The notes beneath the pieces are model-generated. The model was given only the letters and a program-made list of their open reading frames with translations. It was not told the origin of the DNA and searched no databases. From IMG/VR virus record IMGVR_UViG_3300045988_127048: a DNA stretch of 32,537 nt; one strand, 5' to 3'. The stretch comes from a virus. This document shows, piece after piece, positions 5,853 through 30,224 of this stretch (within the stretch, counting starts at the first letter, position 1; every line of letters starts with the position of its first letter). A program made the translations under genes and the position numbers.

Positions 5853-5897
5853 TTTGCTAAATAAATTCTGGATTTGCTAAAATCTATACTATCTTTG
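5853..5897. promoter_or_regulatory. Divergent immunity-region control region: two TTTGCTAAA direct repeats and a TAtcTTTG -7 box facing the early operon
   Basis: TTTGCTAAA at 5853-5861 and 5873-5881; TATCTTTG at 5890-5897. The region is AT-rich and lies between the repressor start (5851) and the first early gene (5957). Confidence 0.4.
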
Positions 5898-10863: not shown

Positions 10864-11304
10864 ATGAAGGTGATAGGCATAGACACGGGCGTCCACACCG
10901 CGGTCGCGGTGTGGGACACCGGGGCGCAGGCCCTCGAGACGCTCGGCACGTTCCACCTCTGGGCGGCCCTCTCCTATGTGAGCCGCCTGAACGGGGGGAC
11001 GGAGGACATCCTCGTGCGCTTTGAGGACGCGCGGCAGCGGACATGGGTGCCGTGGTATCAGGAGGAGCGCCGCAACCGTGGACGGGCGCAGGGCGCCGGG
11101 TATGTGAAGGCCCACTGCGCCATCTGGGCGGAGTTCCTCAAGGACAAGGGCATCCGCCACGAGGCGATAGCGCCGAGGCGCAACGTCACGAAGCTGGACG
11201 CGGACGCCTTCCGCCGGATCACCGGCTGGGAGGGGCGGACGAACGAGCACGAGAGGGACGCGGCGATGCTGGTGTACGGCTTTGACGAGAGGAGGGCGAG
11301 GTGA
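10864..11304 (+). CDS. ruvC: RuvC-like Holliday junction resolvase
   Basis: 146 aa. MKVIGIDTG (first catalytic Asp) and ...TNEHERDAAMLV (C-terminal acidic pair) are typical of RuvC-fold phage resolvases. Confidence 0.7.
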   Translation: MKVIGIDTGVHTAVAVWDTGAQALETLGTFHLWAALSYVSRLNGGTEDILVRFEDARQRTWVPWYQEERRNRGRAQGAGYVKAHCAIWAEFLKDKGIRHEAIAPRRNVTKLDADAFRRITGWEGRTNEHERDAAMLVYGFDERRAR

Positions 11305-12047
11305 TGGAACTCAAAGGCTCGGCACACTGCTTCTTCGAGCAGTCGGGGACTTTCAAGAACGAGTTTGTCAAGCTCGGAATCCCCGCGTTCGATTACGACA
11401 TACAGGACAACTTCGGGCAGACCGACCACGTGGTTGACCTGTTCAATGAGATAGAAACCGCATACAGGGGGGGGCAAAGTGTGTTTGACAGCATAACGAA
11501 AGACGATTTGATTATGGCGTTTTTCCCCTGCATATATTTCTGCTCCATGTCACAAGTCTCGATGTTTTGGGATAATGTCAATTATAGGGGGCTGCCCTAT
11601 GAGGAACGGACGCGCCGGACGCTCGAAAGGGCTGAAAACCGCCTGCGGTTCTTCTCCCTGGCGATAAAGATGCTCACGGTGGCGAAGACAAGGGGGCTGC
11701 GGTTGATAATGGAGAACCCGTGGACGAGTTCTTACCTGTCCAACAATTTCATCCTGCCGCCGAGCGTCGTGGACAACGACAGGTCTTTGCGCGGGGACTT
11801 CTTCGTAAAGCCGACCGCCTACTGGTTCATCAACTGCGCGCCGACTCATGGTCTGACCATCCAGAAGGACAAGAAGGTGAAGCGTGTATCTGACTGCAAG
11901 AGCGCCCCGCACGCGGGCTTGTGCTCCGAAGACCGCTCGATGATTTCCCCGGACTACGCCCGGAATTTCATCCACGACTTCATCCTCGGCAAGGCGCAAC
12001 GCGGCGCGCAGCTCGATTTGTTTGACACGACAATGGCGGAGCCTTGA
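11304..12047 (+). CDS. Divergent C5-cytosine-methyltransferase-fold protein (motifs recognisable but non-canonical)
   Basis: 247 aa. FFEQSGTF sits where motif I FxGxGG would be, AFFPCIYFC resembles motif IV (PC), and LIMENPW resembles motif VI (ENV). The ATG at 11304 overlaps the ruvC stop (TGATG). Confidence 0.45.
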   Translation: MELKGSAHCFFEQSGTFKNEFVKLGIPAFDYDIQDNFGQTDHVVDLFNEIETAYRGGQSVFDSITKDDLIMAFFPCIYFCSMSQVSMFWDNVNYRGLPYEERTRRTLERAENRLRFFSLAIKMLTVAKTRGLRLIMENPWTSSYLSNNFILPPSVVDNDRSLRGDFFVKPTAYWFINCAPTHGLTIQKDKKVKRVSDCKSAPHAGLCSEDRSMISPDYARNFIHDFILGKAQRGAQLDLFDTTMAEP

Positions 12048-13671: not shown

Positions 13672-14226
13672 ATGGGAAGAATGAAAATGGGGACGGTCAT
13701 CGGGAAGCTTGACCGCAAGTACAACAGCATCGCCGTCGGGGACACCGTCGGCATCGAGGTGGACGGGAGCATCGTCACCTATACCGTGGACTCGTTCGGG
13801 GGCATCGTGAAGGAGGACGGGACGCGCCTCGCCCCGAAGGAGTGGAAGGGGGAGGCGTTCGAGATCCTGGAACCCGTGGAGCGGGAGCGCATCTCCGACA
13901 TAGAGGACGAGATTCGCCGCGCCGTGGACGAGAGGAGCGGGGAGCGCATGCTGGCGATGAAGAACGCCCTGGAGGATTTCCGCCGGGAGGTCGCCGGGCT
14001 TCGGGATGCCCTGGGATGTCTTGATGCGGCGCAGAAGTCCCTCGCCGCAGATGTGGATGACGCCGTGTCGGCGGTGGCCGCCCTGCGCTCCGAGTCCGGG
14101 CTGCTGGAGGAAGGCGCCGTGGGGCGCGGCCTGGACACGTTCACGGACACGGAGCTCACGGCCGAGCTGAAGAGGCGCGGCTATGCGGGCACGGTGTCGA
14201 AGGTCATCCGTATAGACGCCTGCTGA
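13672..14226 (+). CDS. Hypothetical protein (small beta N-domain plus coiled coil)
   Basis: 184-aa ORF with high GC3, immediately upstream of the sigma-factor ORFs. Confidence 0.55.
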   Translation: MGRMKMGTVIGKLDRKYNSIAVGDTVGIEVDGSIVTYTVDSFGGIVKEDGTRLAPKEWKGEAFEILEPVERERISDIEDEIRRAVDERSGERMLAMKNALEDFRREVAGLRDALGCLDAAQKSLAADVDDAVSAVAALRSESGLLEEGAVGRGLDTFTDTELTAELKRRGYAGTVSKVIRIDAC

Positions 14227-14227
14227 C

Positions 14228-14536
14228 ATGATGAGCGCAGCGGACATAGCGGGGGAGCTGGCGGAGGCCCGCACGGTCGAGGCGGTGGTGTGCAGGATAG
14301 CCCACCGCCCGATGTGCGACGACCTCGCCGACCTGTCGCAGCTGGTGTACGAGGTCATCCTCACCTATGACGCCGCGCGCCTCAACGACTTGCGCGACTG
14401 CGGGCAGCTGGAGAACTTCATCGCCCGCATCGTGCTCAACCAGTACCGGAGCGCGAGTAGCCCGTTCCATTATGTGTATCGCCGTTTCCGGAGCCTGTGC
14501 TCCCGGATAGGCCTGAGCGACTGGCCGGATGCGTAG
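14228..14536 (+). CDS. Sigma-70/ECF-family region 2-only protein (N-terminal half of a split sigma factor)
   Basis: 102 aa. DDLADLSQLVYEVILTY...GQLENFIARIVLNQYRS matches the sigma region 2.1-2.4 pattern (DLxQ ... WLxxIxxN). The stop at 14534-36 lies after the next ORF's ATG. Confidence 0.6.
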   Translation: MMSAADIAGELAEARTVEAVVCRIAHRPMCDDLADLSQLVYEVILTYDAARLNDLRDCGQLENFIARIVLNQYRSASSPFHYVYRRFRSLCSRIGLSDWPDA

Positions 14537-14852
14537 GGACGGGAGGACACTGCAGGAGGTGGTGACGGACATCCGCGAGGACTACCGCCCGGACGGGACG
14601 GTGTTCGACCCCGACCCGGAGAGGGTGTCGGTGCTGAAGGAGGTGGTGGCCGCGCTGCCGGAGGCCGACCGGCGGATGCTCCTGCTGTACGCGGAGTTCG
14701 CGTCATACAGGAAGATGGGGCGCGCGCTGCACCTGTCGCACATGACCTGCCGGCGGGCGGTGGTGCGCATCCGCGCCCGGGTGCTGGAGGCTTTCGAGGC
14801 GGAGACGACCCGCCGCCGTGAATTGATTGACAACGCAAACAAATTTGAATGA
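14529..14852 (+). CDS. Sigma-70/ECF-family region 4-only protein (C-terminal half of a split sigma factor)
   Basis: 107 aa. LPEADRRMLLLYAEFASYRKMGRALHLSHMTCRRAVVRIRARVLEAF matches the sigma region 4 HTH. It is in a different frame from 14228..14536, and that frame is closed by TGA at 14514-16. Confidence 0.6.
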   Translation: MRRDGRTLQEVVTDIREDYRPDGTVFDPDPERVSVLKEVVAALPEADRRMLLLYAEFASYRKMGRALHLSHMTCRRAVVRIRARVLEAFEAETTRRRELIDNANKFE

Positions 14853-14853
14853 C

Positions 14854-15177
14854 ATGAACATCTATTGTCAACTTCTGACAATCGCGGTGGCGGTTGTCTA
14901 TGTCGTGGAGGTGTCGGGGTTCACGGAGTCGTGGCGCTCCGCCCTCGCGAGGCTGCTGAAGGTGGAGAGGCTCCGCGCCCTGCCGCCGTTCGACTGCGCG
15001 AAGTGCGCGGTCTTCTGGGCCTGCATCATCTGGATGCTGTGCACGGTGGGGCTGCGGCTGCTGCCGGCGGCGTTCTGCTGCCTGCTGTCGCTGCTGTCCG
15101 TTCCGTTCGGACGGTTGATGATATTCATAAGGGAGGGGCTGACGGCCCTCGTGGACAAACTGATTGAGAAGATATGA
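14854..15177 (+). CDS. Multi-pass membrane protein (hypothetical)
   Basis: 107 aa with about three hydrophobic helices and a PPFDCAKCAVFW motif. The ATG at 14854 is just after the previous stop. Confidence 0.5.
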   Translation: MNIYCQLLTIAVAVVYVVEVSGFTESWRSALARLLKVERLRALPPFDCAKCAVFWACIIWMLCTVGLRLLPAAFCCLLSLLSVPFGRLMIFIREGLTALVDKLIEKI

Positions 15178-15476
15178 ACTACACTGAAGAACAGTTCCGG
15201 GCCTTGGAGCCTTACGCCGGGCACTTCCGCACGGCGGTGGAGTCGCGGTGGGTGCGCAACCCCGGGCGCCGCGCGCTGAAGACTATCGGGGAGATATACA
15301 ACGCCGCCGCCGGACTCCGGGAGCGGTGGGACACGAACTGCGGCACGTGCGTGCTGCGTCTCCTGACGGAGGCCGGCACGCTGTGGCTTGAGGACGAGGC
15401 GGCACGCCGTGCGGCCATTGACGCGGCCAACGACGCGGAGTGCGCCAGGATGAGCGAGGAGGCGGAGAGGGCATGA
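15174..15476 (+). CDS. Hypothetical protein
   Basis: 100-aa ORF with ATGA overlaps at both ends. Confidence 0.5.
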   Translation: MNYTEEQFRALEPYAGHFRTAVESRWVRNPGRRALKTIGEIYNAAAGLRERWDTNCGTCVLRLLTEAGTLWLEDEAARRAAIDAANDAECARMSEEAERA

Positions 15477-16771
15477 GGACGGTCGGGGATATAAGTTTCG
15501 AGAGGGAGAGGCTTCCTCTCGGGGTGTTCGAGCCGAACCGGGGACAGGTGGACGGTCTGCCGGCCAATCCGCGCAAGTGGACGAAGGCGGTGGTGGAGCG
15601 TCTGGCGCAGTCCATCCGGGAGACGCCGGAGCTGCTGGAGCTGCGTCCGCTCATCGCCCTGCGTCACGGGGACGCGCGGGTGGTGCTCGGCGGCAACCTG
15701 CGGCTGGAGGCGGCGCGGTCGCTCGGGCTGAGGGAGGTGACGGCCGATGTCATCGTCCCGGGCGCGCCGGCTGATAAGCTCAGGGAGATAGTCATCAAGG
15801 ACAACGGCTCGTTCGGGGAGTGGGACACCGACATGCTGGCCAAGGATTGGGGCGATGTGGACTTGCAGGGTTGGGGCGTGCCGGAATGGGAGACCCCGGC
15901 GGATGAGCGCGATGAATATGAGCGCAAGCGCAAGGAGTTCGACGAGCGCATGAAGGCAGGCGAAGACCTGGAGGGGGACGAGGAATATCAGGCATTCTGC
16001 GCGAAGTTCGAGCTGGCCAAGACCACGGACGACTGCTACACCCCGGACATAATCTACGACGCCCTCTGCGCGTGGCTTGAGTGCGAGTACGGGCTTGACC
16101 GCGCGAAGTTCGTGCGCCCGTTCTATCCCGGGGGTGATTTTGAACGTTACAACTATCCGGAGGGGTGCGTGGTCGTCGACAACCCGCCGTTTTCCCTCCT
16201 GTCGCGGATACTGAGGTTTTACGGGGACAGAGGTATCCCGTATTTCCTCTTCGGGCCGACCTTGACCCTGTTCTCCTCCTCCTCCTCCTCCTGTAAAATC
16301 ATCACCGGAGTCGGTGTGACCTATGCCAACGGGGCGAGCGTGAACACGTCCTTTTACAGCGGCCTGCCTCAGGACAGGCATCTGGCCGCGAAATCCTCTC
16401 CGAGCCTTTATAAGGCCATAAAAGAGGCCAATGACGCGAACCTCAAGGAGATGCACAAGGAACTCCCGAAGTACTCGTATCCGCTCAGCGTGGTGACGTC
16501 CACGATGCTTGTGCCTTATGCCCGGCTGGGCATCCCGTTCGAGATGCCGAAAGACGAGAGCGTCTTCATTCGTAAACTGGACGCGCAGACCGGCTCCGGC
16601 ATTTACGGCTCCGGGTTCTTGATTTCGGAACGCTTGCGTGCCGAGAGGGAAAAGGCCGAGAGGGAAAAGGCCGAGAGGGAAAAGGCCGAGAGGGAAAAGG
16701 CCGAGAGGGAAAAGGCGACGGTCTGGGAACTGTCAGACCGCGAACGCGAAATAATCAAGGGCTTGGGATGA
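15473..16771 (+). CDS. ParB-like nuclease domain fused to an N6-adenine DNA methyltransferase
   Basis: 432 aa. The N-terminal ParB-type motifs are PANPRKW and VVLGGNLRLEAARSLG. The methyltransferase catalytic motif IV is VVVDNPPFS. The C-terminal part has a Ser run and (AEREK)x5. Confidence 0.7.
   Translation: MRTVGDISFERERLPLGVFEPNRGQVDGLPANPRKWTKAVVERLAQSIRETPELLELRPLIALRHGDARVVLGGNLRLEAARSLGLREVTADVIVPGAPADKLREIVIKDNGSFGEWDTDMLAKDWGDVDLQGWGVPEWETPADERDEYERKRKEFDERMKAGEDLEGDEEYQAFCAKFELAKTTDDCYTPDIIYDALCAWLECEYGLDRAKFVRPFYPGGDFERYNYPEGCVVVDNPPFSLLSRILRFYGDRGIPYFLFGPTLTLFSSSSSSCKIITGVGVTYANGASVNTSFYSGLPQDRHLAAKSSPSLYKAIKEANDANLKEMHKELPKYSYPLSVVTSTMLVPYARLGIPFEMPKDESVFIRKLDAQTGSGIYGSGFLISERLRAEREKAEREKAEREKAEREKAEREKATVWELSDREREIIKGLG
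16640..16714 (+). repeat. 15-bp tandem repeat gccgagagggaaaag x5 (encodes AEREK x5)
   Basis: Five perfect head-to-tail copies inside the methyltransferase gene. Confidence 0.9.
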
Positions 16772-17001
16772 TGAGGTGGTTCGACCAGATGAGCGCATCC
16801 TGCGCGGGCTGCCTGCGCCGCGTCACGGGGGAGTTCCCGGACGGGACGCCTTACAGGGCGTGCCGCTGGTACGGCTACATCTTCCACGAGGAGCGCGGGG
16901 TGTCGGACGAGCCGTGCCCCCACCGGGTGACGGACACCGTGAAAGCCACGGAGCCGCCGAGGCCGAAGTCCATCAGGCAGATGGGAGGGGGTGCGGCATG
17001 A
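16768..17001 (+). CDS. Small Cys-rich (zinc-ribbon-like) protein
   Basis: 77 aa with CxxC ... C ... CPH spacing, and ATGA overlaps at both ends. Confidence 0.45.
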   Translation: MMRWFDQMSASCAGCLRRVTGEFPDGTPYRACRWYGYIFHEERGVSDEPCPHRVTDTVKATEPPRPKSIRQMGGGAA

Positions 17002-17429
17002 CTTACGACCTTTCCCGCGACCTTGACCGCAGCCGCTTCGAGGCCCGCGTCGCCGCCCTGATGAAGAGGGGGGCGGCCGTCGACCTGTCGGAGCGCACCG
17101 GGCGGACGAAGGCGCAGAACAGTTACCTCCACGCCCTGCTGGGCGCGCTGGCCATCGAGACCGGGGTGACGCTCCAGTACGCGAAGGAATGGTACTTCAA
17201 GCGCCTCGTCAATCCGGACATCTTCGAGGTGAAGCGCGCCGACCCGTACCTCGGGGAGGTGACGGAGCTCAGGAGCAGCGCCGCACTCACGGTCGAGGAG
17301 ATGTCGCGGGCGGTCGACCGGCTGAAGCGCTGGGCGGCGCAGGAGGGGATTTACCTGCCGGAGCCCGGGGATGCCGACCGCCTGCGGGATATAGAGATTG
17401 AGATGGCCCGGATGTCGGGCTGGATTTGA
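16998..17429 (+). CDS. NinB/Orf-like recombination mediator
   Basis: 143 aa. RTKAQNSYLHALLGALAIETG parallels lambda NinB RSLDQNRKLWACLGDVS. A later segment, SSAALTVEEMSRAVDRLKRWAAQEGIYL, parallels STSRMRVGEFAELLELIQAFGTERGVKW. Confidence 0.5.
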   Translation: MTYDLSRDLDRSRFEARVAALMKRGAAVDLSERTGRTKAQNSYLHALLGALAIETGVTLQYAKEWYFKRLVNPDIFEVKRADPYLGEVTELRSSAALTVEEMSRAVDRLKRWAAQEGIYLPEPGDADRLRDIEIEMARMSGWI

Positions 17430-17866: not shown

Positions 17867-19081
17867 ATGGAGTTCTCGGGCGTGTTCTGGAAGCTGTATG
17901 CGGCGGCCGCGCGCCGTCCGCGCATCATCAGCCAGAGAGGGGGGACCCGCTCCGGCAAGACTTTCAGCACGCTGCAGTTCCTCCACCTCGTCATCCCCGA
18001 GGCCGACGGCCCGGGCGATGTGACGTCCGTGGTGTCGGAGACGCTCCCGCACCTGAAGAGGGGAGCGGTGAGGGACTTCGAGCGCATCGTGGGGCGTCCC
18101 CTGTCGGCGTGCGGCGAGTGGAACGCCTCGACCCTCACGTGGACTTACGCCAACGGCGCGCGGCTGGAGTTCTTCAGCGCGGACAGCCCGGACAAGGTGA
18201 TGGGTCCCGCGCGCAAGCGCCTGTTCGTCAACGAGTGCAACCACATCCGTTACGAGACTTACAGGCAGCTGGCCGTCCGCACCACCGGGCTCATCCTCCT
18301 CGACTACAACCCGGCGGCGATGTTCTGGGCCATCGAGAAGGTGGAGCCGCGCACGGGCTGCGTGTGCATCCGCACGACCTACGAGGACAACCGCGACTTC
18401 CTCAGCGCCGACCAGGTGGCGGAGATAGAGAGCAACCGGGGGGACGAGAAGTGGTGGAAGGTGTACGGCCTGGGGGAGATCGGGACGCTGGAGGGGGCGG
18501 TCTACGACTTCGACACCATCGACGCGCTGCCGGAGGAGCGCTCGTCGCTCGTGGAGGTGCAGGGGCTGGACTTCGGCTTCACCAACGACCCGACGGCGCG
18601 CGTGCAGGTGCTGGCGGACACGGGGCGCAAGGTGCTCTACTGCCGGCAGCGGTGCTACCGGACGCGGATGCTGAACTCAGACATCATCGCCGACCTCAAG
18701 GCGGACGGGGTGCCGCCGAATGTGGAGGTGTTCGCGGACTGCGCTGAGCCGAAGTCCATCGAGGAGATACGGCGGGCGGGCTTCCGCATCATGCCGTGCG
18801 ACAAGGACGCGCCGGTGAAGTCCGACAAGCTGGCGTTCCAGCTCCAGTGGATGAGGGGGTGGCGGCTGCTGGTGACGAAGGACAGCCTCGACCTCATCGA
18901 GGAGCTGCGCAACTACACCTGGGCGCAGGACAGGGACGGCAAACCGCTGAACTGGCCCGTGGACAGGTTCAACCACCTCCTTGACGCGCTCCGCTATGCC
19001 GTCTGGACGAAGTTCGGCAGGGACGCCGGGAGGGGGCAGTACAGGATAACGATACGAAAGAACATATATGGACATGATTGA
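17867..19081 (+). CDS. terL: Terminase large subunit
   Basis: 404 aa. The Walker A motif is GGTRSGKT, with a downstream acidic ATPase motif (LFVNEC). The C-terminal half looks nuclease-like. Confidence 0.85.
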   Translation: MEFSGVFWKLYAAAARRPRIISQRGGTRSGKTFSTLQFLHLVIPEADGPGDVTSVVSETLPHLKRGAVRDFERIVGRPLSACGEWNASTLTWTYANGARLEFFSADSPDKVMGPARKRLFVNECNHIRYETYRQLAVRTTGLILLDYNPAAMFWAIEKVEPRTGCVCIRTTYEDNRDFLSADQVAEIESNRGDEKWWKVYGLGEIGTLEGAVYDFDTIDALPEERSSLVEVQGLDFGFTNDPTARVQVLADTGRKVLYCRQRCYRTRMLNSDIIADLKADGVPPNVEVFADCAEPKSIEEIRRAGFRIMPCDKDAPVKSDKLAFQLQWMRGWRLLVTKDSLDLIEELRNYTWAQDRDGKPLNWPVDRFNHLLDALRYAVWTKFGRDAGRGQYRITIRKNIYGHD

Positions 19082-20342: not shown

Positions 20343-20371
20343 CGCGGTGAGGTACAACCCCACCGCGTTTT
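20343..20371 (+). terminator. Rho-independent terminator
   Basis: A 7-bp stem cgcggtg/caccgcg followed by TTTT. Confidence 0.65.
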
Positions 20372-20393
20372 ATATTCCCCGTAAAACGAAGAT

Positions 20394-21401
20394 ATGATAC
20401 CAATCTGGAAAGATACGGAATTGAGCGCGTCCAACACGGGGCGCGCGGTGTACACGCGCATCCGCAAGGGCGGCGCGGACGGGGAGGTCATCTTCCACGG
20501 GCGCGTGACGGATCCCGGGGGCGCGGTTCTGATGAACGGCGTGTGCGCTGACCACCTCCGGGTGCCGCTGCCGCAGCTCGACGAGGGGGAGGAGTTCACC
20601 GTGCACAACCCGGTGGCGTTCACGCTTGAGATAAGCGCGACGGGGGTGGCGTGGCTGACGAAGGGCACGGTCGAGTTTTACCCGAACTGGAGCTACGACT
20701 GGGAGTTCACGGAGAGGGCGCGCCCCCTGACCATGGCCCCGTCCGGGGAGGCGGTGCCGGGGCAGTACCTGTTCGTTACCGTGATGGCGGAGCCGGGAAC
20801 GGCCCCCGCGGCCACGACTCTGACGCTGAAGGGGACGAGGAAGGACGGGACGGAATACACGCGGGAGGTGGCGGTGCCGGCGGGCGCGCTCATCGGGACG
20901 GGGGTCTTCACCCTCCCGGACTTCGCGTCCCCGGGTGACGTGCTGGAGGTGGCCGGGCTGACATTCCGCGTGGAGGAGAACTGCGCGCGCTATGTGCTGT
21001 ACTGGGTGAACGATTACGGCGGCTGGGAGCAGATGCCTGTGCGCAACGGCGCGCCGCAGGCCGACTCCGTGACCCGGTACACGGTGCAGACGGGGAGGCT
21101 GAACACCTCCGGGTGGAACGGCTCGGCAAGGGCGGAGCGCGAGTACGCCAACGTCACGGAGCGGACGGTGCGCCTCGGTACGGGGTGGCTGGACGACCGC
21201 GGGAGCGCGCTGATGCGCGGCCTGTTCAACTCGACGGACATCCTGCTCTTCGACACGCAGGCCACGAGCGAGGCGGGGCGGTTCATCCCGCTGGCGCTGA
21301 CGGACGACGCGGTGGAGTACAAGACGTTCAAGGGGAACGGCGGCCAGATGGTTCGCTACGACTTCGAGGCGCGGGTGGCACTTAATTTCGTGAGGCGATG
21401 A
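20394..21401 (+). CDS. Virion structural protein (tail/baseplate candidate)
   Basis: 335-aa ORF in the late operon, coupled (ATGA) to the next large structural gene. Confidence 0.4.
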   Translation: MIPIWKDTELSASNTGRAVYTRIRKGGADGEVIFHGRVTDPGGAVLMNGVCADHLRVPLPQLDEGEEFTVHNPVAFTLEISATGVAWLTKGTVEFYPNWSYDWEFTERARPLTMAPSGEAVPGQYLFVTVMAEPGTAPAATTLTLKGTRKDGTEYTREVAVPAGALIGTGVFTLPDFASPGDVLEVAGLTFRVEENCARYVLYWVNDYGGWEQMPVRNGAPQADSVTRYTVQTGRLNTSGWNGSARAEREYANVTERTVRLGTGWLDDRGSALMRGLFNSTDILLFDTQATSEAGRFIPLALTDDAVEYKTFKGNGGQMVRYDFEARVALNFVRR

Positions 21402-25423: not shown

Positions 25424-25450
25424 GCGGCCCTGTTACAGACGGGGCCGTTT
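25424..25450 (+). terminator. Hairpin terminator (weaker)
   Basis: Stem cggccc/gggccg with flanking G-T pairs, then TTT. Confidence 0.45.
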
Positions 25451-25478
25451 CCATATCCACCCGTAAAAACGGCAAAAG

Positions 25479-26993
25479 ATGGGCGATTTGGCGACCATAA
25501 ACGGAATTCCGGTATACGACGCCCGTGTCGGCTCCGACGGCACGGGAATGCTGCGTATATCGCTCGTGGATGACCCGGCGGTGTGCTCCGGCTTCGTGGC
25601 CATGGCCTCGGAGCGGGCGGTGCAGCTGTACCGGGTGGAGGACGAGGAGAAGCGGCTGGTCTTCGGCGTGGTGATGCGCGCGGACTTCCCGATGTACCGC
25701 AAGGACGACAAGAACGGGGAGTATTATGTCATCTACCGCCGCGACACTATCCGTCAGATGGCGGAGCAGTACCTCGCGGACGGGCGGCAGAACGACGTGA
25801 ACCTGATGCACCGGGAGGACTCCGACGTGGACGGCGTGCAGATGGTGCAGTGGTTCCTCAAGGACGGGGACAGGGGGCTCAGCCCCGACGGCTTCGGGGA
25901 CATCGCCGACGGGTCGCTGTTCGCGGAGTTCCACGTCACCAACGACGAGGTGTGGGACGAGGTGAAGGCCGGCACCTATAAGGGCTTCAGCCTTGAGGGC
26001 GTGTTCGACTTCGTGCCCGACCGCAACCAGGACAGGGTCGACAGGGACGCGGCCCGTGCCGGGGAGTTCAGCAGGCAACTTAACAATTCATCGAAGATGA
26101 GAATATCAAAATTCAAGGCTGCGCTGGCCAAGGTGCTGGCGCAGTTCGGCAGCGTGACGACCGACAAGGGCGTCCTCGTCTGGGACGGTGACGGCGACCT
26201 CAAGGAGGGGGACGCCGTGTCCGTGGAGGCGGAGGACGGCACCACGTCGCAGGCGGCTGACGGGGAGTACAAGACCCCCGACAACAAGACGATAGTCGTG
26301 GCGGACGGCAAGGTGAGCGAAATCCGCGACCCGGACGCCGAGGTGGCCACCACCGAGGAGGAGTTCGGAGACGTGGACACTGACAAGGGACGCCTGTCGT
26401 GGGACGGCGACGGCGACCTCAAAGCCGGGGACGAGGTGTTCGTGACCGGCGAGGACGGGGAACGCGAGGCCGCTCCGGATGGAGAGTACGTCACCGCGGA
26501 CGGCAAGGTCATCAGGGTCAAGGACGGCAAGGTGGAGGACATCACCGACGACCGCGCCGAGGTGGCCGCGAGGCGCGTGCGGCAGGCGTACGAGATGACC
26601 TACAACGAGAAGACCGTGCAGCTCGCGGAGGCCGTCGCCGCCAAGGGCTACAAGGATTTCTATCTCACTGAAGCGTCAGATAGCCATGTGGTCATCTGCA
26701 CCTGGGACGAGGACTACAACTCGAAATATGTGCGCATCGCGGTGACGCGCGGGGAGGACGATTCCGTCACCCTCGGCGCCGAGACCGAGGTGAAGCCGGC
26801 ATACGTGCCGGTGGACTACGACATCGACGCCGCGCAGACCGAGGCCACGGCGCTCCGCCGTCAGGTCGAGGAGCTGAAGGCGCAGCCGCTGGCGAAGCCG
26901 GTGAAGGAGGTCGTGCAGACCACCGTGAAGTATGTCCGGACGGGCAACAAGGGCCTCGACCGTCTGGCCGCCATCCTTGAGGCCGGGAAATAA
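25479..26993 (+). CDS. XkdF-like prohead protease domain fused to a scaffold-like C-terminal region
   Basis: 504 aa. The N-terminal roughly 190 aa (NLMHRED...GSLFAEFHVTNDEVWDEVKAGTYKGFSLEG) fits the XkdF-type pattern. The C-terminal half contains two 59-aa repeats (26154-26330 and 26373-26549) and a coiled coil. The gene lies directly upstream of the capsid gene. Confidence 0.6.
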   Translation: MGDLATINGIPVYDARVGSDGTGMLRISLVDDPAVCSGFVAMASERAVQLYRVEDEEKRLVFGVVMRADFPMYRKDDKNGEYYVIYRRDTIRQMAEQYLADGRQNDVNLMHREDSDVDGVQMVQWFLKDGDRGLSPDGFGDIADGSLFAEFHVTNDEVWDEVKAGTYKGFSLEGVFDFVPDRNQDRVDRDAARAGEFSRQLNNSSKMRISKFKAALAKVLAQFGSVTTDKGVLVWDGDGDLKEGDAVSVEAEDGTTSQAADGEYKTPDNKTIVVADGKVSEIRDPDAEVATTEEEFGDVDTDKGRLSWDGDGDLKAGDEVFVTGEDGEREAAPDGEYVTADGKVIRVKDGKVEDITDDRAEVAARRVRQAYEMTYNEKTVQLAEAVAAKGYKDFYLTEASDSHVVICTWDEDYNSKYVRIAVTRGEDDSVTLGAETEVKPAYVPVDYDIDAAQTEATALRRQVEELKAQPLAKPVKEVVQTTVKYVRTGNKGLDRLAAILEAGK

Positions 26994-27023: not shown

Positions 27024-28043
27024 ATGGCAAACGTTAATTTTCTTGTGAACACCCTGCCGGACTACGTGCAGACCAACAGGGACATCCTGCTCAAGACCTT
27101 CGCCCTCGCCGGTGCCGGTACGAGGGCGAAGATGACCATCCAGACGGGCGTGAAGCTCAACGCCTATGTCAATTTCCTCGATGTCGACCCGACCCTTCAG
27201 GACGGGACCGCCTGCGGCTTCAACGCGGCGGGTGACGTGGAGCTCTCGCAGCGCCTTCTGAACGCCCCGCCTATCAAGGTCAACATGGAGATATGCCCGC
27301 GCACCCTCATCGGCAAGTATGCCGAGTACCTCGTGCGCAACAACGCCAACGCGGAGAGCCTCCCGTTCGAGGCCGAGGTGATGCAGGGCGTCACCGACGT
27401 GCTCAACAACAAGATCGAGAAGCTCGTATGGCAGGGCGACAAGACCAAGACCAGCGACGCCGACCTCAAGTGGATTGACGGCCTCCTGAAGATTCTCGCC
27501 GGGGAGAGCACCGCGAAGAAGGTGGCCATCGCCGCCGGATCGTCAGCCTACGCCGGCATCATCGCCGTGTTCAAGGCCCTGCCGGCCGAGGCCCGCAAGA
27601 GGGGCGCGACCATCTTCGTGGCCCCGGAGATTTTCGACCAGTTCGCGCTGGAGCTCGTGGCCGCGAACCTCTACCACTACAGCGGCCCTCAGAATGAGGA
27701 GCCGTCCGAGATCGTGCTCCCGGGCACCGCGTGCCGCATCGCCAAGACCTACGGCCTTGAGGGGGCGTTGAAGATTGTCGGCACTTTCGCCCGCAACCTC
27801 ATCTACGGCACCGACATGCAGGGCGACGAGGAGGACATCCGCCTGTGGTACTCCGAAGACCACGACGTCTTCCGCCTGAAGGTTCTCTGGAACTCCGGCG
27901 TGCAGGTGGCGTTCCCTGACCTCTGCGTGGTCGGCACCTTCGCGGCGGCACCGACCAGCCCGGCGGGCGTCGAGAGCATCGCGGCCAACGTGGCCAAGCT
28001 CGCTGACGATTCACACGTCTTCAACACGAAGACGGCGGCATAG
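27024..28043 (+). CDS. Major capsid protein
   Basis: 339 aa. It follows the protease/scaffold gene and is followed by a strong terminator. The N-terminal MANVNFLVNTLPDYVQTNRD... is typical of HK97-fold capsid proteins of Bacteroidota phages. Confidence 0.7.
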   Translation: MANVNFLVNTLPDYVQTNRDILLKTFALAGAGTRAKMTIQTGVKLNAYVNFLDVDPTLQDGTACGFNAAGDVELSQRLLNAPPIKVNMEICPRTLIGKYAEYLVRNNANAESLPFEAEVMQGVTDVLNNKIEKLVWQGDKTKTSDADLKWIDGLLKILAGESTAKKVAIAAGSSAYAGIIAVFKALPAEARKRGATIFVAPEIFDQFALELVAANLYHYSGPQNEEPSEIVLPGTACRIAKTYGLEGALKIVGTFARNLIYGTDMQGDEEDIRLWYSEDHDVFRLKVLWNSGVQVAFPDLCVVGTFAAAPTSPAGVESIAANVAKLADDSHVFNTKTAA

Positions 28044-28711: not shown

Positions 28712-28759
28712 GCGGTTACGGAACGGGCGCGGGACATATACACACGTAAAAGCGACAGG

Positions 28760-29101
28760 ATGATATATCTGAGCAACACAAGCGGGCCGCAGGAGCTGCG
28801 GCTGATGAAGAGCCGGGCGGGGACACCCGCGAGGCTCAGGCTCCGCAGCTGCATCGACCACCGGGAGGTCGACGCCACGGTGGAGGTGGTGTCGTCCGGG
28901 GCGGTGTCCGACACGCTCCGGGTGTCTCTCCCGGAGACGCGCAAGGCGTGGGAGCGCCCGGACGGGGAGTGGGAATACGACCTCCTGGACGCCGGCGGCG
29001 ACAGGCTGGCCACCGGCGTGGCCGTGGTCGGGGACTACGGCGCCGACCGGCAGGAGAACGAGGACAACGAGATAATTTACAGACAATATGGCAACGAATG
29101 A
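28760..29101 (+). CDS. Hypothetical structural-module protein
   Basis: 113 aa from the ATG at 28760, which is preceded by the ATAT..CGTAAAA motif. It overlaps the portal start. Confidence 0.45.
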   Translation: MIYLSNTSGPQELRLMKSRAGTPARLRLRSCIDHREVDATVEVVSSGAVSDTLRVSLPETRKAWERPDGEWEYDLLDAGGDRLATGVAVVGDYGADRQENEDNEIIYRQYGNE

Positions 29102-30224
29102 AATCAAGCGCAAGGCGGTCAGCTTCGCGGCCCTCGACCCGTATCTGGAGACGAAGATCATGTCTCCCCGGGAGAAGGTCGCGCGGGGCCGGGACGGCCT
29201 TGTGGAGTGGGGGGACGGCAACCTGTACCCCGAATACCTGACGGAGCTCTACGACACCGTGCCGACGCTCCAGAGCATCATCGACGGCACGGTGGACTTC
29301 ATCGTCGGCGACGGCGTCGAGATAATGCAGCTCCGGGGAGGGCTGGCCCCGTCGGCGATGAACCTGCGGGGGGACACCATCGAGGAGCAGCTGCGTGACG
29401 TGGCCACCGACCTCAACATGTACGGCGGCTTCGCGCTCCAGGTCATCAGGGGGCGGGACGGACGCCCGGCGGAAATCTACTACATCGACGTCCGCCGCCT
29501 GCGCACGAACCGCGACAACACCGTCTTCTGGTGGTGCGAGGACTGGGAGAAGCGGACGGCGCACGAGACGGTGCGCTATCCGGTGTTCATGCCGTCGCTT
29601 GACTGGGCGGCGCTAGACGAGGAGGGGCGGAGCCTGCACGCGTCGAGCATCGTCTTCGTGAAGACGGTCCGGCGGCGCGTCTATCCTGTGCCGAAGTTCG
29701 CCTCCGCCGTCAAGGCCGGGGAGATAGAGCGCGGAATCGACGACTTCCACCTCAACTCCCTGGACAACGGGTTCACGAGCTCGCAGATCGTGAATTTCAA
29801 CAACGGCGAAACGAGTGACGAGATGAAGGAGCAGATCGAGGACGAGTTCACGGAGAAGTTCAGCGGGCACTCCAACGCGGGGCGTATCCTCTTCAGCTGG
29901 AACAACTCGAAGGACACGGCCACGACCATCGAGTCCCCGACGGTGGAGGACTTCGGCGACCGCTACAAGGCCCTCTCGGAGCGCTCGCGGCAGCAGCTGT
30001 TCACGGCGTTCCGGGCGAACCCGAACCTGTTCGGCATCCCGACCGAGGGGAACGGCTTCGCGAACGAGCAGTACGAGGAGAGCTTCCGCCTGTACAACCG
30101 CACGGCGGTGCGGCCGATGCAGCGGCTGATTTGTGACGCCTACGACCGCATCTACGGCCAGACGGGCGTCCTGACGATAACGCCGTTCTCTTTGGATTAC
30201 GGCACGGAGAAGGAGGTGCGGTGA
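29088..30224 (+). CDS. Portal protein
   Basis: 378 aa. Size and sequence pattern (VEWGDGNLYPEYL..., NMYGGFALQVI, FWWCEDW) are typical of small phage portal proteins. Confidence 0.65.
   Translation: MATNEIKRKAVSFAALDPYLETKIMSPREKVARGRDGLVEWGDGNLYPEYLTELYDTVPTLQSIIDGTVDFIVGDGVEIMQLRGGLAPSAMNLRGDTIEEQLRDVATDLNMYGGFALQVIRGRDGRPAEIYYIDVRRLRTNRDNTVFWWCEDWEKRTAHETVRYPVFMPSLDWAALDEEGRSLHASSIVFVKTVRRRVYPVPKFASAVKAGEIERGIDDFHLNSLDNGFTSSQIVNFNNGETSDEMKEQIEDEFTEKFSGHSNAGRILFSWNNSKDTATTIESPTVEDFGDRYKALSERSRQQLFTAFRANPNLFGIPTEGNGFANEQYEESFRLYNRTAVRPMQRLICDAYDRIYGQTGVLTITPFSLDYGTEKEVR

Follow-up and report, generated by a model that had tools for sequence, protein, structure and literature searches.

A candidate two-subunit ECF-like sigma factor encoded by overlapping genes of a temperate gut Bacteroidales phage

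Introduction

Only a few sigma factors that naturally consist of two pieces have been studied, namely SigO-RsoA, Tn916 Sig7-8 and the late factors of phages T4 and SPO1. The last of these, T4 gp55 with gp33 and SPO1 gp33/gp34, are phage late switches in which a σ2-like protein and a separate binder of the β flap replace the host sigma factor. T4 gp33 is not known to carry a DNA-binding helix-turn-helix, transcription by the T4 factors depends on the sliding clamp, and the late promoters of T4 consist of a −10 element only. In Bacillus subtilis, SigO-RsoA (YvrI-YvrHa) places functions of the σ2 and σ4 type on two co-transcribed polypeptides and has been described as having 'sigma2 and sigma4 domains in two separate polypeptides' (PMC7826278). 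In Tn916 both parts of Sig7-Sig8 (orf7/orf8) associate with RNA polymerase and drive the main promoter of the element, Sig8 having been recognised through its similarity to RsoA (bioRxiv 10.64898/2026.10.01.756105). The 2021 reclassification of the ECF sigma factors was made with a search that split ECFs and phage ECFs escaped (PMC7826278).

Here we analyse a pair of overlapping ORFs in a temperate phage genome of about 32.5 kb (IMG/VR record IMGVR_UViG_3300045988_127048; 32,537 nucleotides, the whole of which we call the window). A preliminary description of this DNA, made by reading the sequence, had proposed that the pair encodes a sigma factor with regions 2 and 4 on separate polypeptides, and had called two-subunit sigmas rare with SigO-RsoA as the described bacterial case. 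Such factors do remain few, but the statement is weaker than it was put, since Tn916 Sig7-8 has now been described (bioRxiv 10.64898/2026.10.01.756105). We consider it likely that in this temperate phage of gut Bacteroidales an ECF-like (group 4-type) sigma factor is naturally split, the two ORFs encoding its subunits, which would assemble on the host core RNA polymerase for transcription from structural-gene promoters.

Results

Two ORFs share eight nucleotides

The features of the locus, with the parts that we assign to them from homology, are as follows.

14228..14536, + strand: ORF1, 102 amino acids, ATG start; putative σ2 half (core-binding and −10-reading) with a short C-terminal tail that would be the first part of the broken linker
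14529..14536, + strand: start/stop overlap ATGCGTAG, 8 nt; the start of ORF2 lies within the end of ORF1, with ORF2 in the +1 frame
14529..14852, + strand: ORF2, 107 amino acids, ATG start; putative remainder of the linker and σ4 half (−35-reading helix-turn-helix)

The coordinates of both ORFs, the peptides quoted for them in the preliminary description, their different frames and their 8-nt overlap were all recovered. So was the closure of the ORF2 frame by a TGA at 14514-16, 15 nt upstream of its ATG, and the junction (CCG GAT GCG TAG) has no slippery sequence, as had been claimed. The window thus does not hold both sigma domains on one polypeptide but has them in two ORFs of different frames, an arrangement that is conserved. 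The preliminary description had also pointed to start/stop packing elsewhere in the genome, and the neighbouring genes have it: the gene upstream ends at 14226, just ahead of the ORF1 start at 14228, the stop of ORF2 at 14852 is followed by an ATG at 14854, and the junction after that is an ATGA overlap at 15174-77. The stop/start overlap ATGCGTAG probably couples the translation of ORF1 and ORF2, so that the two proteins would be made together.

The split is kept across the family while its junction varies

On 68 contigs from independent assemblies the gene calls include an ORF1 protein identical to that of the window (P0173), and 56 proteins make up the ORF2 cluster. When 5.8 billion proteins were searched by words, the homologues obtained for either ORF were all 97–109 amino acids long. 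Seven contigs of the same clade (two from IMG/VR, five metagenomic) keep the two genes with a changing junction sequence, the alternatives being ATGCGTGA, ATGGGAGGTGA with a 9-nt insertion, ATGAGTAG and ATGAACGATGA; throughout this clade, which is that of the window, ORF2 takes the +1 frame. In a profile-guided scan of IMG/VR, an ORF2 homologue lay directly downstream of ORF1 in 31/31 related viral contigs and in none of them were the two fused, with ORF1 identity falling to about 31–35% and the ORFs intact. A scan of MAG contigs gave three loci.

Over all lineages the junction types comprise ATGCGTAG, ATGCGTGA, ATGGGAGGTGA, ATGAGTAG, ATGAACGATGA, ATGA and small gaps. The non-redundant offsets between the two genes are −4 (ATGA; ten cases), −8 (seven), −11 (six), −14, −23 (two), −65, −1, +1 (two) and +4, and, depending on the lineage, ORF2 is in the +1 or the −1 frame relative to ORF1. 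The class of junction is therefore what the relatives conserve; its sequence, length and frame vary. A fused close relative differing by a single base at the junction, which the preliminary description had named as the observation that would point to a sequencing error or pseudogene, was not found among these relatives: junctions differ between lineages and there are always two genes.

Two longer proteins in the 90% cluster of ORF1 (P0178 and P0179; 202–204 amino acids, each from one single contig) were considered as ORF1-ORF2 fusions and rejected. Here the upstream gene is fused in frame to ORF1, and the products still stop at ...DWPDA, before ORF2. In these relatives of window positions 13672-14536 the upstream 184-amino-acid gene has an internal replacement. 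In a rumen-type relative (L017:675-1514) the ORF2 (σ4) homologue is 280 amino acids long, with a C-terminal extension that by eye resembles an HNH/NUMOD-type homing-endonuclease-like module.

On these sequence comparisons the ORF1/ORF2 split is a real, conserved two-gene arrangement, neither chance nor error.

Homology to ECF sigma factors is clearest at the level of the family

The window's own proteins fall below every curated cut-off. ORF1 has no meaningful match in Pfam, NCBIfam or PHROGs. ORF2 matches Sigma70_r4_2 (E 4.2e-4; 20.3 bits, below the cut-off of 25.7), positions 106–164 of the 165 in TIGR02937 (E 4.1e-4) and phrog_1740, 'RNA polymerase sigma factor' (E 5.8e-5); the generic helix-turn-helix families HTH_50 and HTH_38 match it as well as Sigma70_r4_2 does.

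We then turn to the family. With the ORF1 profile as query, an exhaustive HMM search gave 522 representatives at 50% identity (E<=1e-3). Among the best 149 of these, a set that leaves out the query's own clade, 144 are about 83–133 amino acids long and five are 173–226. The five (P0044, P0060, P0096, P0102 and P0116) are one-piece relatives, in which the N-terminus resembles ORF1, the C-terminus resembles ORF2 and a variable linker joins them. Four of these match TIGR02937 (sigma70-ECF) collinearly over nearly the whole model, in alignments that start at positions 6–15 and together span 6–165, with E-values from 3e-11 to 5e-6 (P0044, 5.8e-9; P0060 and P0096, about 5e-6). In P0102, residues 15–184 correspond to TIGR02937 positions 6–164 with a score of 43.2 bits against a cut-off of 42.9. 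Since the fused relatives match this model collinearly, ORF1 and ORF2 would correspond to one ECF-type sigma factor cut in the linker between σ2 and σ4. Separate domain models agree with this, Sigma70_r2 matching 8/140 members of the ORF1 family (best E 4.2e-5) and Sigma70_r4_2 matching 18/25 members of the ORF2 family (best E 2e-8).

We also compared the family alignments by hhalign with seven genuine ECF sigma factors from a Bacteroidales MAG. ORF2 aligned to the σ4 columns with a probability of 93% (E 2.9e-7), and ORF1 to the σ2 columns in the right register, with E 3.2e-4 and a probability of only 39%. With the Sigma70_r4_2 matches of its family, this identifies a σ4 helix-turn-helix domain in ORF2. 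The most conserved columns of ORF1 read DLxDLxQxVYxxLL and FFIARIxxNQxxS, which we take to be ECF region 2.2 (core binding) and regions 2.3/2.4, respectively.

Sequence-profile searches of the PDB with ORF1 profiles returned no sigma factor. An AF2 model of ORF1 built on a 28-sequence alignment has six helices and a pLDDT of 89.8; an earlier model from six sequences (pLDDT 66) gave meaningless Foldseek matches and was discarded. Against the PDB, all Foldseek matches to the retained model have E-values >1; sigma factors make up four of the top eight, and the best TM-score is 0.55, to Mycobacterium tuberculosis SigL (6tye_F). Against predicted viral structures (BFVD) the top matches have a probability of 1.00 and TM-scores of 0.64–0.75 and are phage proteins of 160–230 amino acids, the size of a whole ECF sigma factor; those at ranks 8, 17 and 22 (TM-scores 0.65, 0.61 and 0.40) are named as sigma-70 region 2, sigma-70 family or sigma70-ECF.

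The claim that regions 2 and 4 lie on separate polypeptides is thus upheld at the family level, where the placement of the fused relatives on TIGR02937, the hhalign alignments and the fold matches agree. The expectation that each ORF would hit sigma-domain HMMs held in part: it fails for ORF1 of the window, which has no match, and for ORF2, which stays below the cut-off, and is borne out within the family by P0102 and by the members matching Sigma70_r2 and Sigma70_r4_2. Taken together, these comparisons support ORF1 and ORF2 as the halves of one ECF-type sigma factor, with σ2-like and σ4-like parts on separate, co-transcribed proteins; the evidence is weak for the window alone and much stronger for the family.

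One-piece relatives are scattered among split ones

A maximum-likelihood tree of the σ2 part (152 rows, midpoint rooting) has few columns and many unresolved forks. It scatters the five fused proteins over at least four positions, all of them next to split members; support is starred for one of these placements, that of P0060 within the P0050/P0037 group. The simplest reading of this tree suggests that the split is old and that the halves have occasionally been re-fused; assembly artefacts may account for some of the fused proteins.

The phage and its probable host

The pair lies in a stretch where PHROGs name a DNA methyltransferase (11301-12047), a ParB-methyltransferase (15440-16771), NinB (16998-17429) and the large terminase (17867-19081). 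The sigma genes had been placed just upstream of the late genes. This does not hold, as about 2.6 kb containing the ParB-methyltransferase, NinB and other genes separates the pair from the terminase genes, and the first candidate late promoter (below) is 5.5 kb away.

ORF2 is followed by genes for a 107-amino-acid hydrophobic, Cys-rich protein, probably of the membrane (14854-15177), and a 100-amino-acid CxxC protein (15174-15476). Neither has a match in Pfam, and both have homologues immediately after the sigma pair in 39/39 related loci checked. Their position may recall that of the anti-sigma gene beside ECF sigma factors, or alternatively may reflect synteny within one phage group.

Near-identical prophage copies (L044 and L045) adjoin host genes for a pectinesterase, a cytidylyltransferase (CTP-transferase-like) and a guanylate kinase. 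The end of these prophages has a leftward HTH_3 repressor-like gene. The flanking guanylate kinase shares 72% identity with its counterpart in a Bacteroidales MAG which itself carries a family member, and 50–61% with those of other Bacteroidales. The −7 motif of the Bacteroidetes primary sigma factor is TAnnTTTG (PMC7366714). The window has four such sites (3054+, 5890+, 5932− and 3814−), all in intergenic gaps of the early or lysogeny-control regions, and two of them (3054+ and 5932−) have a TTTG at about the expected −33 distance. The sites at 5890 (+) and 5932 (−) form a divergent pair. From the guanylate kinase identity and the TAnnTTTG sites we take the host to be, probably, a Bacteroidales bacterium.

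A bipartite motif precedes structural genes

Three sites in the late region of the window share a sequence pattern, all on the + strand and 20–24 nt before an ATG.

20352..20378, + strand: candidate promoter 1, GTACA-N14-TATAT; 20 nt before the ATG of gene 20394-21401, at the head of a block that includes a tape-measure-like gene
25433..25459, + strand: candidate promoter 2, TTACA-N14-CATAT; before 25479-26993 (head protease-like) and 27024-28043 (capsid-like)
28716..28742, + strand: candidate promoter 3, TTACG-N14-CATAT; before a small gene, 28760-29101, and the portal gene, 29088-30224

Relatives at a greater distance show the conserved unit to be a bipartite TTACR-N14-YATAT, of which the site at 20352 is a GTACA variant. 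The window has two matches to the strict pattern against 0.04 expected, and three to the relaxed pattern (+ strand) against 0.14 expected. The motif is also present in the orthologous gaps of three genomes of 49–59% GC (G002, G004 and G006), site 1 among them. In ten further genomes with a split pair it occurs in eight, with 28 sites on the strand of the sigma genes and one on the opposite strand; a reversed-pattern control gave seven on both strands together. Gene calls for this analysis were crude. All told, 11 of the 13 related genomes examined carry the motif, and TTACR-N14-YATAT as written is absent from G003 and G212. Another genome (G213, the contig of L039) has eight copies scattered along its length, every one on the strand of the sigma genes, so that in this genome at least the motif is not limited to three structural-gene gaps.

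The N14 spacer is made up of a C/G-rich core (CCGG, GCGG or similar) flanked on both sides by A/T-rich stretches, a composition conserved in the window and its relatives. At window sites 1 and 2 the −35-like part lies within a GC-rich hairpin after the preceding stop codon. A simple terminator scan called none of the hairpins of the three late gaps, and because their T-runs are only 3–4 long we do not name them terminators.

A second pattern, ATAT-N5/6-CGTAAAA, has three matches in the late gaps of the window against 0.01 expected; as a family-wide motif, ATAT-N3-8-CGTAAAA was rejected, being confined to close relatives of the window. Translation start regions of Bacteroidetes are enriched in A and have no Shine-Dalgarno sequence (PMC7366714). 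The CGTAAAA (or GGAAAAA) stretch is more likely such an A-rich translation-start region than part of a promoter.

Co-occurrence with the split pair and plausibility thus make TTACR-N14-YATAT a candidate promoter of the ORF1/ORF2 sigma factor. With terS and terL placed ahead of the first site, at least some late genes would not depend on the motif.

Discussion

How the pair might act

We propose the following scheme. The early and middle operon is probably driven by promoters of the host type, TAnnTTTG, judging from the sites in the window. The overlapping stop and start codons would lead to both subunits being produced from this operon in a coupled manner. ORF1 would be expected to bind the clamp helices of β′ and to read or melt the −10 element, and ORF2, through its σ4 helix-turn-helix, to bind the β flap and read the −35 element. 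As homology and the distribution of the motif suggest, the two would assemble on the host core RNA polymerase, and the resulting holoenzyme would initiate at TTACR-N14-YATAT before three structural blocks (tail-like, head protease/capsid and portal).

Two other accounts of the locus concern the junction itself. Programmed +1 ribosomal frameshifting at the overlap could join ORF1 and ORF2 into one polypeptide, and the constant +1 position of ORF2 in the window's own clade is in line with such a mechanism. The overlap has no slippery sequence for it, however, and no junction sequence is conserved across the family, in which ORF2 is in the +1 or −1 frame according to lineage, overlaps run from 1 to 65 nt, and some pairs are separated by small gaps with each gene having its own start codon. 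With neither a shared slippery site nor a fixed frame, these observations argue against a conserved programmed frameshift, which we regard as very improbable. The other account, in which a one-piece sigma gene appears broken through a sequencing or assembly error or has recently decayed into a pseudogene, finds no support, the one-piece relatives being only distant members of the family. Against it stand the 68 contigs with the identical ORF1, the intact ORFs of split pairs down to about 31% identity, and the ...DWPDA ending that P0178 and P0179 retain even where the upstream gene has been fused on. We take the conserved two-gene layout with its varying junctions to rule out sequencing error and recent pseudogenisation, to which we attach a vanishingly small probability.

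More serious, and still in our judgement unlikely, is that the pair is of sigma descent and no longer acts as a sigma factor. Here ORF2 would be a helix-turn-helix activator working with the host primary sigma, and ORF1 a co-factor that binds RNA polymerase, or an appropriator or anti-sigma-like protein. The equal scores of ORF2 on generic helix-turn-helix models and on Sigma70_r4_2, the great divergence of ORF1 from Sigma70_r2 and the AT-rich character that the −10-like TATAT shares with many promoters are all compatible with such a role. Against a loss of sigma function stand the fused relatives, which are collinear with the ECF model over the whole of that model, and the fact that the most conserved columns of ORF1 are those resembling region 2.2 (DLxxLxQxVY) and region 2.4 (FFIARIxxNQ). 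The motif, too, speaks against it, being unlike the host TAnnTTTG consensus. We therefore retain the two-subunit sigma factor as the preferred reading.

For this large family of uncultured phages as a whole we put forward, with confidence that goes no further than an even balance, that the two-subunit sigma is the ancestral and normal state of this type of phage protein, the one-piece form a rare secondary fusion, and TTACR-N14-TATAT its own bipartite class of promoter for the structural genes of Bacteroidales phages.

If the proposal is true, it identifies a late-gene switch and a promoter class for common temperate Bacteroidales phages of gut and rumen, makes this family the most extensive collection of naturally split sigma factors, and offers an orthogonal sigma/promoter pair for Bacteroides engineering. 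Hundreds of clusters at 50% identity, together with the occasional one-piece relatives, would then form a natural test of why a sigma factor is cut in its linker, for which possible reasons are stoichiometry, an assembly on RNA polymerase in a set order and separate regulation of the parts.

Comparison with known systems

We found no published description of the ORF1/ORF2 family. Scans with Pfam and NCBIfam name no SigO/RsoA or Sig7/Sig8 family for either ORF; in NCBIfam ORF2 matches only models of sigma factors or helix-turn-helix proteins in general, each below its cut-off, and no specific relationship in sequence to SigO-RsoA was detected. In 50,697 GenBank phage records, tblastn with ORF1 and ORF2 of the window and with one more central member of the ORF1 family gave no match, and a DNA search of the same records returned nothing.

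With SigO-RsoA the present pair shares the distribution of σ2- and σ4-type functions over two polypeptides. It differs in being phage-borne with a Bacteroidales host, in having the σ2 gene first (the order of the domains), in the overlap of the two genes and in its one-piece relatives, which show a clean cut in the linker. Tn916 Sig7-8 is likewise a two-subunit sigma of a mobile element, and its role is that proposed here for ORF1 and ORF2. It belongs to a conjugative element of Gram-positive bacteria and has experimental support. The T4 gp55/gp33 type of late switch is a more distant likeness: ORF2 instead keeps the σ4 helix-turn-helix, and the candidate promoter is bipartite, so that on both counts the pair departs from that type.

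The one-piece ECF (group 4) sigma factors represented by TIGR02937 have the same domain content in the same order (σ2, linker, σ4) and a similar promoter geometry. ECF promoters have the layout AAC-N16-CGT, a spacing that the candidate motif matches when counted as TAC-N16-ATAT, and the motif is unlike the TAnnTTTG consensus of the Bacteroidetes primary sigma. In the present family a single chain is the exception (five of the best 149 representatives), and the fused members come up to the TIGR02937 cut-off or near it. Two-subunit sigma factors as such are known, and what would be new in this pair is that a Bacteroidales phage carries it, that the cut falls cleanly in the linker with the genes ordered as the domains are, that a whole family has the split as its norm, and that there is a candidate class of promoter.
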